Positions 8,407-59,936 of a stretch of DNA of 61,537 nucleotides are shown piece by piece. A program made the position numbers and the translations under genes. Every line of letters starts with the position of its first letter. Position 1 is the stretch's first letter. The notes beneath the pieces were generated by a model. The model had not been told where the DNA came from. It did not search any database and was given only the letters and a program-made list of their open reading frames with translations. The DNA comes from Gammaproteobacteria bacterium (GTDB lineage: Bacteria; Pseudomonadota; Gammaproteobacteria; UBA1113), in contig JAGVJQ010000024.1 of the NCBI GenBank assembly GCA_020051015.1, positions 1 through 61,537 on the forward strand, read 5' to 3'.

Positions 8407-8619
8407 GTAGCCCGGGTCAAAGCGTCATAATATGAATGAAATGCTAATAACGTAATAATTCACCATTAGCGATAAAACAACGTTTGACGCGTAACCCGGG
8501 ATCGAGCAGGCCTCGACCATGATTCCCGGGTTTCACGCGTTAACAAACGTTTTTCAATTTCTCTGATTATCAATGCCCTATGATTTTTTCATTCGCAAAA
8601 CGCGCTCACACCGGGCTAC
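8407..8619. repeat. REPIN-like inverted doublet of long-loop GTAGCCCG REPs (copy 1)
   Basis: GTAGCCCGGGTCAAAGCG-~63 nt-CGCGTAACCCGGG, a spacer, then inverted CCCGGGTTTCACGCG-~61 nt-CGCGCTCACACCGGGCTAC. Confidence 0.8.
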
Positions 8620-8629
8620 GTTTGACAAA

Positions 8630-9925
8630 TTATTGTTTTACTTCCGCCCCGGTTTCATGCACAAAAACGCCAAAAATAATCGCTAATGCTAAACAAATCG
8701 GGACAATCGACAATGCAAAACGGTAATCACTATTCGTCAACGCAATGCCACTAAGGTGCAATGCATTTCCCGAATGCCAATCTAATAATCTACCGATGAC
8801 TGGTTGAAACACCATCCCACCTAACATGGTTAAAAAGTTAGTCATGGCAATGGCTGTACCTGCAAATCGGTTAGCCACTGATTCACGACTTACGGCAAAA
8901 GTAATAACTTCTACACTAGCAAATAAACCAAGCAAAAATAGTAAAACACAAATTTGTGTTACTGAAAGATTTGGCACGTAAAACAAAATACATGAAACAA
9001 TTAATGCTAACGCAGCACCCACAATAATAACAATTTTGCGACGTTCAATACGATCTGAAAGCCAACCAAAAGCGATTCCACCTATTGAAAAGCCAACAAA
9101 TAATAATGGATTCACAATTGAAGCATGAATTTCAGGAAAATGCTGTGCTTGTTCTAAGTATGGAATGCCCCATAATTCAGCAAATACGCTAATGGGTAAA
9201 TATAAGAAACAAGCAATAATGCCGGCAAACCATACTTGGCGCGTACGTACCATAAATGCCAAACCTGAAAATAAGTCTCTAAAACTTGTCGATTGATGCA
9301 ACTCATCAGCGGCATTAAGTTGTTGTGCTGGATTTTTATCTTTTATGGAAAACCAGATAATTGCGGCTAAAATCACCCCCAGAATGGCGGTGATAAATAC
9401 TGTTTGATGCCAACCAATAATATTAACCATCGGCGTTAATAAAATATCACCCAACACTGGCCCTAACATACCTAAAGCAGTCACTAAACCACAGACCATC
9501 GCAAAACGACTTGGTGGTAACCAAATGGATGCTAACTTCATTACCCCAACAAAAGCAAAGGCCGATCCAAAGCCAACTAGAAAACGGCCGAATGCGGCAA
9601 TTGAAAATATATTCGCAGCAAATAAACAGGTACCAACGACACAAATCAAACAAGCAAAAGTAATTAATCGGCGTGGACCAAAGCGATCCATGAGCACCCC
9701 AACGGGAATTTGCAGTGGTGTATAAGCGTAATAATAAAACGCAGACAAAAATCCAAACATCATATTGTCAATATTGAAAGTTTGCATTAACTCATGTTGC
9801 ATCACACTGGGTGTAACGCGTAAGAAATATTCATAGCAATAAAATAAAGCGCCAATACCACACATAATCCATGGCAGATATTTGGGGCTAAATATTGATG
9901 ATATTGTCTTTGTTTGTGTATTCAC
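8630..9925 (-). CDS. MFS transporter, Pht-like
   Basis: About 12 TM segments; GVLMDRFGPRR and GWLSDRIERRK motif A; FYCYEYFLRVTPSVM N-terminus. Confidence 0.85.
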   Translation of the reverse strand: MNTQTKTISSIFSPKYLPWIMCGIGALFYCYEYFLRVTPSVMQHELMQTFNIDNMMFGFLSAFYYYAYTPLQIPVGVLMDRFGPRRLITFACLICVVGTCLFAANIFSIAAFGRFLVGFGSAFAFVGVMKLASIWLPPSRFAMVCGLVTALGMLGPVLGDILLTPMVNIIGWHQTVFITAILGVILAAIIWFSIKDKNPAQQLNAADELHQSTSFRDLFSGLAFMVRTRQVWFAGIIACFLYLPISVFAELWGIPYLEQAQHFPEIHASIVNPLLFVGFSIGGIAFGWLSDRIERRKIVIIVGAALALIVSCILFYVPNLSVTQICVLLFLLGLFASVEVITFAVSRESVANRFAGTAIAMTNFLTMLGGMVFQPVIGRLLDWHSGNALHLSGIALTNSDYRFALSIVPICLALAIIFGVFVHETGAEVKQ

Positions 9926-10832
9926 TTTTTATTTCCTTTTTATGCAATGAACTTACAGATGGCGACATCATTCGTCTAGGCCGCAAAACACCATCATCTG
10001 TTAACTCAGCTATACCAATAAATTGCTCATTTTCATCATAAACTCGATAAACAGTAGGAATTCCTTGTTGACCGGGAATTCGCTGTCCTAACATTAATCT
10101 TAATGCCGAATGCAAGTCCAAGTGGAATGATGGGATATGTTGCATCGCATCTGTGATTGGTAATACAACTGGCTGGCATGTGTTTTCTAATACGTCCAAG
10201 CTTTGCATTTGTATTTCATTAAAAGGAGCCACATAGGTTCGTCTTAATGCCTGCATGTAAGCACCGCAGGTTAATGCATTACCAATGTCTTCGACTAATG
10301 AACGAATATAAGTTCCTTTACTACACACGACATCGAGTGTAATGGTATTCTCAGTAAATTCAATTAACTCTAAGCGATGAATCGTTACTAGACGTGCAGT
10401 TCGCTCAATTACATGTCCTTTACGCGCCCAATCATACAAAGGTCTACCTTGATGCTTGATAGCAGAATACATAGAAGGTACTTGTTGAATTTCACCACGA
10501 AAATTAGTTAATACTGATTCAATTAATTCGGTATTTAATGGTGGAACAAGTCGATAACCGCTGATCTCACCTTCTGCATCGCCCGTTGAGGAAACGGCAC
10601 CTAATTTTGCGACGGTGCGATAAGCTTTATCCGCATCAAGTAAGAATTGAGAAAATTTAACTGCTTCGCCTAAACAAATCGGCAACATTCCACTTGCTAA
10701 TGGATCGAGCGTGCCTGTATGTCCAGCTTTTTCAGCTTTAAATAAGCGTTTAACTCGTTGTAATGCGCGGTGGGAAGAAATTCCTGTTGGTTTATCCAAC
10801 AGAAAAATACCGCAAGAATTGTTGGACATCAT
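9888..10832 (-). CDS. truB: tRNA pseudouridine(55) synthase
   Basis: DKPTG, GHTGTLDPLASG, YSAIKHQG, CSKGTYIRSL motifs. Confidence 0.97.
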   Translation of the reverse strand: MMSNNSCGIFLLDKPTGISSHRALQRVKRLFKAEKAGHTGTLDPLASGMLPICLGEAVKFSQFLLDADKAYRTVAKLGAVSSTGDAEGEISGYRLVPPLNTELIESVLTNFRGEIQQVPSMYSAIKHQGRPLYDWARKGHVIERTARLVTIHRLELIEFTENTITLDVVCSKGTYIRSLVEDIGNALTCGAYMQALRRTYVAPFNEIQMQSLDVLENTCQPVVLPITDAMQHIPSFHLDLHSALRLMLGQRIPGQQGIPTVYRVYDENEQFIGIAELTDDGVLRPRRMMSPSVSSLHKKEIKSEYTNKDNIINI

Positions 10833-11188
10833 TCAGGTTTTTCACGTGTTACTTTGTCAATTAACGTAGCGATTCGATTCCCCCGTAATAAAGAATCATC
10901 ATAATAAAATCGCAACACCGGCATCGCACGTAATTCAACACGTTGTGCCAATTGGTAGCGTAAATAACTGGCTGCGTGATTAAGTGCTTCAATTGCTTCA
11001 GGAATTTTTTCATCGGGTTGTAACACACTAACATAAACTTTAGCATGCGCTAAATCACGGCTAACTTTGACATCAGTAACTGAAACCATACCAACACGTG
11101 GATCTTTAATTTCCTGCTGTATTAGTAGTGATAATTCGCGCTTTAGCATGTCACCAATGCGATCTAGTCTAGAAAAATCTTTAGCCAT
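10829..11188 (-). CDS. rbfA: Ribosome-binding factor A
   Basis: IKDPRVG...VSRDL.HAKVY...P.LRFYYD; synteny with infB and truB. Confidence 0.97.
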   Translation of the reverse strand: MAKDFSRLDRIGDMLKRELSLLIQQEIKDPRVGMVSVTDVKVSRDLAHAKVYVSVLQPDEKIPEAIEALNHAASYLRYQLAQRVELRAMPVLRFYYDDSLLRGNRIATLIDKVTREKPE

Positions 11189-11232
11189 TTAATTAATTCC
11201 GATACATTGATTTCAAAAAGCTTCCCTCGCCC

Positions 11233-11295
11233 GACAGCCCCCTATCCCCCACCAGTCCCTCCCCCGCGAAGCGGGGGAGGGACGCACATTATGCA
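11233..11295 (+). repeat. CCCTCYCCC-type palindromic repeat, short-loop form
   Basis: gtccctcccccgc-gaa-gcgggggagggac stem; flanks match 42027-42090. Confidence 0.75.
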
Positions 11296-58304: not shown

Positions 58305-58311
58305 ATTATTC

Positions 58312-58944
58312 TCACTGTAACCGCATATCATCAACATGCCAACCTTTGGTCATGGCAACTAACGTTGCTTTGCCATTTAATGTTCCTTGAAATTGTTTAC
58401 CCAAGGTCTCTTTCAAGTTATCAGGCATACCCTCGACCTGATAATTAAAAATAACCTCTACCACTTTTTTCCCAGTATATTGTTCCAAATCTTTTAATTC
58501 AGCATAATCTTGGATATTAGTAATGTTGACCGTTCCCAAACAGTAATCAGCTTTTTGCATTGATATAGATGAGCTTGCATAAGCTGAATGCGGCATTGGT
58601 TTTATATCAATTACCCATGTTTTACCTTGATCCGTTAATGCCGTTGTATACTTATGCCCAACACCCAAAAAACCTTGGTTAATTTCTTTAGATGTAAAGC
58701 TAATATAACCCGCTTGTTGCAATGCTTGATAATTCTTAATTTCTTGTGAACCCAGCACGGAAAATCCATTACCTATTGCAATCATGCCACAACTTGGATT
58801 ATTGGATTTATCAGCAAAATATTTGTTGAGGGTATCCTTGAAATTACTTTCTGTTTCAGCTGTTTTGGAACAAGCTGCTAACAAAAAAAGGCTTAATCCT
58901 ATAATAGTCGAGGTCAATGTTAGTGTTCGCATGATAAACTCCAT
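58312..58944 (-). CDS. Hypothetical lipoprotein
   Basis: Lipobox LAAC; 210-aa ORF. Confidence 0.7.
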   Translation of the reverse strand: MEFIMRTLTLTSTIIGLSLFLLAACSKTAETESNFKDTLNKYFADKSNNPSCGMIAIGNGFSVLGSQEIKNYQALQQAGYISFTSKEINQGFLGVGHKYTTALTDQGKTWVIDIKPMPHSAYASSSISMQKADYCLGTVNITNIQDYAELKDLEQYTGKKVVEVIFNYQVEGMPDNLKETLGKQFQGTLNGKATLVAMTKGWHVDDMRLQ

Positions 58945-59097
58945 CTCATTAATTAAATTAAAATATACGAATAGATATTATCATGTGCAAAAGCTATGTA
59001 AATAGATCTTTGCATATTTTTAATAAATAAAAAAGAATTGACAAAGCGTCTATAAATCCACCACTAACAATGAAAGGATTAAGAATAATCGAGGATT

Positions 59098-59775
59098 CTA
59101 CGATTGATACCGTGTGGGATCGGCAACTCCGGCTTCACGGAAACCTTTCTCACGAAAATGGCAACTATGACAACGACCACAGGCGCGCCCGTCTTCATCA
59201 GCTTGATAACAAGTAACCGTTAAACTGTAATCCACCCCAAGCTTTATGCCTGTTTTTACTGTATCCGCTTTGTTGAGATGAATGATTGGGGTATGAATCG
59301 TAAAATGTTGGCCTTCAACACCTGCTTTGGTAGCGAGATTCGCCATTTTTTCAAATGCTGCAATATATTCTGGACGGCAATCAGGGTAATTAGAGAAATC
59401 GACCGCACTAACACCAATAAAAATATCATGAGCACCCAACACTTCTGCCCAGCCTAAAGCAATTGATAGAAATATAGTATTACGTGCAGGGACATAAGTA
59501 ACAGGAATACTATCCGCAGAAGGCGCATCTTCGGGAATCGCTATGTTGCTATCGGTTAATGCTGAACCTTGTAAGGCACCAACGCCTAATTCAAAAATAC
59601 GATGCTCAATCGCACCCATTTTTTTTGCAATTAATTTAGCGGCATTTAATTCTGATCGTAGGCGTTGTCCATAGTCAAAACTCAATGCATAAGGCTCAAA
59701 ACCTTGTGCTTTGGCAATAGCTAAACACGTTGTTGAATCTAATCCACCCGATAGTAAAACGACTGCTTTTTTCAT
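59098..59775 (-). CDS. queC: 7-cyano-7-deazaguanine synthase
   Basis: SGGLDS, FDYGQR, TYVPARN, YPDCR, TCY...CGRC.SC motifs. Confidence 0.97.
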
Positions 59776-59839
59776 AATGTTGACTCAATACAATAATTTT
59801 TGTGTGTTGCGACGGTGTCGTTGCGAATGGCTATTTCGA

Positions 59840-59936
59840 GCGGCGGTGGATTACGAGCAAACGCGTGGGCACATATTGTTATGTGATACCTCTTCGAGGA
59901 CAACAATATTTAGCCCACCTTACGCTCTAATCCACC
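59840..59936 (-). repeat. REP-B copy 3 nested in the loop of a REP-A
   Basis: gcggcggtggattacgagc-[59865-59923 REP-B]-gctctaatccacc. Confidence 0.85.

Follow-up and report, generated by a model that had tools for sequence, protein, structure and literature searches.

Short palindromic repeats that enclose long or structured inner segments recur along contig JAGVJQ010000024.1 of assembly GCA_020051015.1, a 61,537-nt stretch of gammaproteobacterial DNA that was analysed as a whole and is called the window here. This raises the question of whether the bacterium inserts DNA preferentially at hairpin tips, so that small palindromes act as modular carriers of cargo, or whether the inner segments are simply parts of the repeats. 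A first-pass annotation of the window had argued for the former from five observations, all of which we found in place and all of which recur across the genome. Our analysis indicates that the genome holds a rich set of palindromic repeats in which the apparent cargo is, probably, mostly a fixed segment of the element that carries it, with nesting rare and close to the rate of random landing.

The genome (G000; 150 contigs, 2.52 Mb, 37.7% G+C, 88.7% completeness) fits an uncultured Legionellales bacterium, and a window protein of the Legionella_OMP family agrees with this. The window is its contig C14, and other loci are given as contig:position. At least nine families of short interspersed palindromic repeats are present in the window. 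Four of these, F1, REP-A, REP-B and REP-C, are repetitive extragenic palindromic (REP) sequences headed by GTAG and arranged in inverted doublets like those of REPINs (REP doublets forming hairpins). Their head patterns were observed at 51, 54 and 60 sites in the genome, compared to none for reversed-pattern controls, and the repeats exceed chance occurrence. In the window, 16 stretches between genes and one within a gene have further copies elsewhere in the genome.

Inner segments of the F1, REP-B and CCCT repeats

The genome has 117 occurrences of GTAGCCCG, the head of the F1 family. Here the annotation had described REPs with AT-rich loops of 57 and 72 nt at 8407 and 53602. Both gaps are present, but each lies in what is just the left half of a composite with four arms. 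Read from one end, the whole element has GTAG and arm 1, then a spacer of ~57-78 nt leading to arm 2; past an apex of ~20-24 nt come arm 3, another spacer and arm 4-CTAC. It is about 213-226 nt long, and heads are ~212-226 nt apart in most pairs in the genome. In the copy at 8407-8619 (213 nt; CCCGGG subfamily; repeated segment 8401-8623), GTAG (8407-8410), arm 1 (8411-8427) and the 57-nt AT-rich spacer (8428-8484) are followed by arm 2 (8485-8500), the apex (8501-8524), arm 3 (8525-8539), the second spacer and arm 4-CTAC, which ends in a reverse-strand head at 8619. In the copy at 53602-53817 (216 nt; CCCGTATTA subfamily; left spacer 53620-53691, 72 nt), only the left half had been seen because the right head carries one substitution. 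This second element has 36 BLAST matches in the genome; many of these span its full length, with identities of 73-84%.

The lengths of the F1 spacers are tightly held. A scan that paired GTAG and an adjoining 10-nt arm with the complement of that arm gave, for the largest subfamily, 55 units, 53 with gaps of 65-81 nt and two with gaps of 187-188 nt. The spacers can be aligned across copies, with one spacer type per arm class (79 rows, including four non-members), and almost none occurs apart from its host arms (type a, 2 of 34 matches; type b, 0 of 18). Their G+C content is 34%. We considered whether they might be hidden stems and rejected this, since their structure is weak (mean z -1.19; 28% of 75 spacers below -2), which makes 'AT-rich loop' a fair term.

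REP-B had been reported to carry an extra stem-loop at its apex, and each of the three window copies bears this out. These are a solo Y-type unit at 28161-28224 (plus strand), composed of GTAG, outer arm, ~40-nt inner stem-loop, outer arm and CTAC; a Y unit headed by GTAT at 33516-33575 (plus strand), with a degenerate REP-A-like left arm upstream, from ~33497; and the copy at 59865-59923, discussed below. The Y inner stem-loop has 37 matches in the genome, none of them outside REP-B-type arms. Most REP-B copies run into an inverted second unit, type X, with an unrelated inner segment of ~52 nt. Together X and Y form a four-arm composite of ~165 nt whose design is like that of F1 (e.g., C87:33085-33247).

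The CCCT repeats exist, as the annotation had noted, in short- and long-loop forms, and their gaps are bimodal. Among 161 arm pairings, which span both strands and count many elements twice, the gap is 4-14 nt in 81 and 45-54 nt in 35, and the range of 25-34 nt is empty; another 27 pairings (15-24 nt) and nine (60-64 nt) are the same hairpins, paired from an upstream tandem C-rich arm. The window has a short-loop hairpin at 11228-11296 (plus strand), preceded by an unpaired C-rich direct repeat, and a long-loop module at 45132-45304 (plus strand), whose arms (~45171-45243) lie inside its own outer inverted repeats. Two further units, at 41868 and 42027, proved to be modules of a single composite. 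This element, at 41867-42156 (290 nt; minus strand), is a truncated copy of a ~400-nt composite whose left side is cut off in the window; it contains a long-loop module (41868-41940), a short-loop module (~42027-42081) and a degenerate REP-C-like right terminus (~42136-42155). Short and long CCCT forms have consistently different arm sequences, and none of 18 matches to the 47-50-nt inner hairpin of the long form lacks the arms. The evidence points to two subfamilies, each amplified after one event, rather than to repeated insertion.

In all three families the inner segments co-diverge with the arms. Given this co-divergence, their tight lengths and their near-absence as solo sequences, we regard these segments as built in. 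The inner segment would then be copied along with the arms whenever an element is duplicated. Besides the F1 spacers (~57-81 nt), the REP-B segments (~40-52 nt) and the CCCT long-form hairpin (47-50 nt), built-in parts would include the cores of the TwoAYGGAY-like and FAM8 repeats described below, with their long, covarying closing stems. Giant loops would have arisen once per family and been inherited thereafter, and nested elements would form when new copies occasionally land in intergenic DNA of which about one-fifth already consists of repeats. The central position of nested GTAG repeats, described below, would reflect access to single-stranded loops.

Nested elements and their frequency

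Nesting does occur. As the annotation had stated, a REP-A hairpin at 59845-59936 holds a REP-B: the REP-A arms (59845-59858 and 59924-59936) are retained on both sides, and a REP-B Y unit (59865-59923; minus strand) plus 6 nt substitutes for the loop. An empty REP-A hairpin, with an inner distance of 15 nt, is found at 34321-34357, where it abuts a half-REP at 34301-34317 (whole feature 34301-34357). REP-A is a classical 33-nt REP that forms doublets of ~110 nt with outer arms 90-93 nt apart. We counted 38 hairpins at the canonical 15-nt inner distance, allowing one mismatch, and in the GTAG gap scan 32 of 36 units have a gap of 13 nt. Contigs C48, C49, C70, C104, C118 and others start or stop inside REP-A or other repeats, and because the assembly breaks at these repeats, copy numbers are lower bounds.

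Elsewhere in the genome, the REP-B-in-REP-A arrangement is repeated at C117:6694, where the host REP-A is degenerate, and a REP-C lies inside a REP-A at C49:20386. REP-C itself has 58 units, with the partner mostly 103-118 nt away; the window contains a REP-C REPIN at 43097-43258, in which two inverted GTAG-headed REPs are separated by 86 nt, and a solo unit at 18094-18142. Another host is MITE9, a MITE (a transposable element of the miniature inverted-repeat kind) of ~147 nt, represented in the window by a fragment at 54232-54288. Its central 12-nt word occurs at 18 sites beyond the four copies of a second element, MITE5, with which it shares its central 25 nt. In two MITE9 copies (C8:4700-4939 and C60:49887-50070), REP-C takes the place of the usual 18-nt centre. 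These two nestings share junctions, so they may represent one event.

To judge how common such cases are, we used two counts. A scan for split high-scoring segment pairs (HSPs) with nine family queries yielded three insertions among 352 strong HSPs. Of 482 repeat islands, 26 have at least two families and ~9 (~2%) are clearly nested. DNA with at least three other copies makes up 64,619 bp, or 2.56% of the genome, and repeat DNA occupies 53,678 bp, or 19.0%, of its approximate intergenic part. Measured against this, nesting does not exceed, and in fact lies below, what would be produced if copies landed at random in intergenic DNA with 19% repeats. We also considered whether the repeats are seated in unique host hairpins, such as terminators. 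This idea was rejected: 7 of 435 islands lie within unique flanking palindromes compared to 3.4 expected from controls, and the seven comprise variable-stem families, a tRNA and one REP-C in REP-A.

A different picture was obtained for MITE5. The copy at 41381-41604 (plus strand), which the annotation had labelled RPE-1-like, contains, as had been claimed, extra DNA near its centre: 76 nt (41437-41512) that are absent from the other three copies of this ~143-nt element (C134:3669, C143:1306 and C89:10411, 143 nt each). A search of 41381-41604 against Rfam, at E up to 5, gave no match. The 76-nt module consists of four mini-hairpins, one with an AYGGAY-type loop, and is a member of a small family. 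It entered MITE5 at a CGA/AT site that lies ~17 nt 5' of the predicted apex. Relatives of the module are found 17 nt from a MITE9 end and in place of part of a FAM8 core (C149:2755); the MITE5 copy at C134:3669 likewise sits 17 nt from a MITE9 end. Three more members of ~75 nt, at C41:9820-9985, C47:35080-35240 and C123:1560-1800, lie in tandemly duplicated 3' ends (30-73 nt) of genes for tRNA-Ser, tRNA-Arg and tRNA-Glu, with a T-loop-like CGA/AT junction; junctions of this type recur in two MITE families. A tRNA-targeting integrative remnant was considered here, and the tandem duplications fit no simple attP x attB scheme. Throughout the family the upstream junction is mostly CGA, where the uninterrupted host continues with AT, and the target of the module looks sequence-defined rather than apex-defined. 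The terminal inverted repeats of MITE5 and MITE9 are clear, and whether the four MITE5 copies carry a target duplication is ambiguous.

Contigs from four public sequencing runs, compared over 41300-61000, showed no difference between empty and filled states at the nested sites they cover, including 59845, though such contigs drop rare variants. None of them joins across the REP-B at 59865-59923, and one (run X1) that covers 59591-60002 has zero differences. A contig of run X2 does contain the joint 41436>41513. Its shorter side is 54 nt, the length of the MITE5 left part, and the joint most likely derives from another, empty MITE5 copy, which makes it uninformative on the locus at 41437.

A RAYT gene and the origin of the long loops

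The annotation had proposed a search for REP-associated tyrosine transposase (RAYT) genes flanked by the repeats, and such a gene is present. The sole RAYT match in the genome, at C60:36207-36773 (NF047646, 176 bits against a cut-off of 80), is bracketed on both sides by ~215-nt F1-type composites of a sister subfamily. For the GTAGGG-headed families, and for each of REP-A, REP-B and REP-C, the 88.7%-complete assembly yielded no RAYT. At C61:39971-40721 (L035 1508-2258), an inverted F1 pair brackets a minus-strand open reading frame (ORF) of 153 residues with the same geometry as at the RAYT. By analogy with known systems, we infer that the GTAG families would be copied by the RAYT, a HUH Y1 enzyme acting on single-stranded hairpins beside GTAG. 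Among database genome contigs, relatives of this RAYT were found at four distant loci with 28-48% identity; the two closest outside homologues found are from Bradyrhizobium (48%) and from an Oxalobacteraceae metagenome-assembled genome (46%).

Several observations weigh against the conclusion that inner segments are built in and nesting is random. The REPs that flank the Bradyrhizobium and Oxalobacteraceae RAYTs have the same arm heads with 9-nt gaps, and these short loops beside outside homologues imply that the giant loops are derived, in several families of one lineage. In G019, a genome of the same class but a different family, the REP-B head is present at 28 sites in classical short REPINs (3-nt loop); our genome has 54 sites with this head and the same-genus genome G001 has none. 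Two REP-A copies (C40:7147 and C123:13947) have AT-rich, F1-like loops of 82-83 nt, compared to the 38 with short loops, and REP-B X and Y units have identical arms around unrelated inner segments. Nested GTAG repeats lie at the symmetry centre of the host at five of five loci (REP-A at 59845, C117:6694 and C49:20386; MITE9 at C8:4700 and C60:49887), although these cases were identified post hoc and the REP-A search was blind outside the central 15 nt. Finally, the 19% intergenic repeat content is derived from a crude ORF map, and the assembly is 88.7% complete with contigs that often end in repeats, so that counts are lower bounds and further RAYTs were possibly missed.

Could an active process aim at hairpin tips, for example by RAYT strand transfer into an extruded loop, and thereby turn palindromes into modular carriers? 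Such a process would account for the central position of nested GTAG repeats, for the two MITE9 copies with REP-C at the centre, for the unrelated X and Y segments within identical REP-B arms, and for giant loops in three GTAG families whose heads are short-looped in other bacteria. The best case for palindromic ends as carriers is the ~400-nt composite, in which REP-C-like ends enclose two CCCT modules and which is present in at least four full copies (full at C17:414 and C111:9223, with more at C126 and C140). There are also precedents: passages in PMC3733652 describe REP dimers centred in palindromes in Anabaena variabilis, Thermomicrobium roseum and Halothiobacillus neapolitanus, and the portion of Tobes and Pareja (2006; PMC1525189) that we drew on describes ISPsy8 landing exactly on the symmetry axis of the REP hairpin. 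Nevertheless, we consider such targeting unlikely. Inner segments of tight length that are not found solo, together with an F1 design common to G001, are not what it predicts, and nor are a nested fraction of ~2% of islands against 19% repeats in intergenic DNA, embedding in unique hairpins at control levels, or the off-centre positions of the module and of MITE5, at 17 nt from an apex or from a MITE9 end. The lack of an empty/filled difference at 59845 in the public contigs argues weakly in the same direction. The annotation's interpretation thus stands in part: nesting is real and central for GTAG repeats, whereas the cargo is probably mostly built in and insertions of the other kind are off-centre. 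Insertion points random relative to the apex, which the annotation itself had named as evidence against its view, are matched in part by the module and MITE5, which lie off-centre at sites that look sequence-defined.

A related proposal is that REP tips repeatedly gained 40-80 nt of DNA (once ~370 nt), with ends recognised by the RAYT copying whatever they contain and with loading directed to the loop by the HUH enzyme. We regard this as quite unlikely; if it is true, REPs as tip-loaded carriers would provide a direct handle on REPIN target choice. That the apex gained DNA long ago, when these families originated, or does so now and then, is plausible.

The opposite possibility is that long forms are ancestral everywhere and that short loops are the products of deletions between arms or between short direct repeats. 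For F1, the long form is indeed old. F1 head sites number 60 in our genome and 28 in G001, where pairs are 207-221 nt apart, compared to 0 in the 11 other relatives searched. A G001 copy has identical arms, diverged spacers of ~70 nt and the same four-arm composite. Because the composite is common to both species, the long form predates their split and is the ancestral state within the genus, so that this outcome, which the annotation had listed as one that would count against it, is in part what we found. Deletion derivatives also exist: at C16:1962, the hairpin inside a REP-B has been deleted from between short direct repeats. The 127-nt F1 forms with three arms, in a subfamily with a self-complementary arm core, and a pair of F1 heads spanning 61 nt in G001 (C212:1716/1776) could be read in the same way. 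However, REP-A has 38 short-loop hairpins against two with long loops, the consistent difference between the arms of short and long CCCT forms excludes a simple deletion product, and the REPs beside related RAYTs outside the order are short-looped, in agreement with the 2-20 bp given as the norm in parts of PMC3733652. As a general explanation, we therefore consider ancestral long forms very unlikely, and built-in segments that arose once per family and were then inherited remain the reading we prefer.

TwoAYGGAY-like and FAM8 repeats

Two window repeats with a 'GGA hairpin' core (26197 and 46554) are members of a family of 17 loci whose loops are ATGGAT or AGGGAT and which resembles the TwoAYGGAY RNA (RF01731). 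The scores are 35.3 bits (26160-26292) and 25.6 bits (46514-46650) against a gathering score of 43, and no match in the window reaches this threshold. The repeat at 26151-26302 (plus strand) has a conserved 61-nt core (26197-26257) between covarying stem arms (26151-26196 and 26257-26302). Across 16 of the 17 loci, a truncated copy on C79 having been dropped, 24 of 42 stem pairs show double-sided change and 648 of 672 cells are standard pairs. FAM8, a second family of this design with 12 loci, has a GC-rich core and variable closing stems, and is found in the window at 25288-25464 (plus strand).

The other TwoAYGGAY-like copy, at 46531-46635 (plus strand), lies within carB (ORF 45958-49293; minus strand), where it adds 35 codons in frame. 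This 105-nt insert, encoding 35 residues, is absent from all seven relatives aligned, G001 included; G008 (L019), in which the anchor motif is missing, was omitted from the alignment. Since the arms are absent from the relatives as well, arms and core arrive together, and no hairpin was already in place for the core to enter. The insert is also present on a run X1 contig, which differs at 21 positions over 487 nt; these differences are clustered in or just beside the repeat and include at least two compensatory changes across the stem.

The stem covariation, the sub-threshold RF01731 match and the FAM8 cores with their variable stems would also suit the idea that conserved inner parts are selected structured RNAs or protein-binding sites closed by the arms, but this is most improbable, given that the in-frame carB copy missing from relatives indicates mobility rather than a conserved regulatory site, that F1 spacers are only weakly structured, and that the families are species- or genus-specific expansions.

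Other features of the window

The 50 ORFs of the window that were scanned with Pfam encode housekeeping functions, among them clpB, ileS, infB, nusA, carA, murJ, secG and tpiA; a 51st large ORF is carB. No transposase or integrase family was detected among the 50, in agreement with the annotation, which had reported no mobiliser in the window. An ORF at 2710-3141 matches the ComP_DUS family (90.9 bits), a type IV minor pilin that is the receptor for DNA uptake sequences. At 57999-58097, three tandem 33-nt repeats (the second and third with 85% and 67% identity to the first) lie in a minus-strand ORF (57795-58337) that has no Pfam match. With Rfam gathering thresholds, tRNA was the sole match in the whole window, and at E up to 5 the region 25000-47000 gave only the sub-threshold TwoAYGGAY matches and chance microRNA and snoRNA matches.

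Comparison with known systems

The GTAG families resemble REP/REPIN-RAYT systems, as described in parts of Nunvar 2010 (PMC2817692), Bertels and Rainey 2011 (PMC3116915) and Di Nocera 2013 (PMC3733652), in the GTAG head (F1, REP-A, REP-B and REP-C), in their many copies and in their mostly extragenic location. Regularly spaced inverted doublets, a single RAYT flanked by its own repeats, and genus- or species-specific expansion are further likenesses. They differ in loop length: passages of PMC3733652 give 2-20 bp for GTAG REPs, and up to 27 bp in Bradyrhizobium, compared to 57-81 nt in F1 and ~40-52 nt in REP-B. The doublets here are also four-armed, at 165-226 nt, and REP-A, REP-B and REP-C are without a found RAYT. 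If REPs are defined as imperfect palindromes of 20-40 bp with short loops (2-20 bp), REP-A (33 nt) and REP-C belong among them and F1 and REP-B do not.

In the bacterial interspersed mosaic elements (BIMEs) of E. coli and in Neisseria arrays, REPs are joined with other motifs or families as mosaic units. Hybrid dimers and interleaved Neisseria repeats are mentioned in the sections of PMC3733652 that we used. The sequences found here are unrelated to these, and several of the mosaics, such as the ~400-nt composite, have been amplified whole. A mobile element inside a REP also recalls the REP-targeting insertion sequences IS1397, ISKpn1, IS621, ISPsy8 and ISPpu9; here, however, the guest is a non-autonomous repeat of 25-76 nt with no transposase of its own, and no target duplication was recognised.

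Like TwoAYGGAY, for which the accessible part of Weinberg 2010 (PMC2864571) includes Gammaproteobacteria among the taxa listed, the 17-locus family has two AYGGAY-loop hairpins inside a long stem of free sequence. It differs in scoring below the gathering threshold, in having some AGGGAT loops and in having one copy in frame in a gene. That copy recalls the Rickettsia palindromic elements (RPEs), whose insertions in genes are mentioned in part of PMC3733652. By description alone, the RPEs and the QMITEs of Coxiella burnetii are also similar in being small palindromes in an intracellular-type bacterium, with an in-frame insert in a housekeeping gene.

For genome annotation, the relevant points are that the 'loops' belong to the elements and that at least one housekeeping gene, carB, holds an in-frame repeat. 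To our knowledge, the copying of REPs or REPINs and their landing sites have never been shown in vivo. The REP units of ~100 nt, the four-arm doublets, the central nestings and the carrier-like composite provide natural material for studying how REPs are copied. The repeat set as a whole is of a known kind, combining REP/REPIN-RAYT elements, MITEs and TwoAYGGAY-like repeats with BIME-like mosaics, and within it the REP units with 57-81-nt loops, arranged in four-arm doublets, are an unusual variant.

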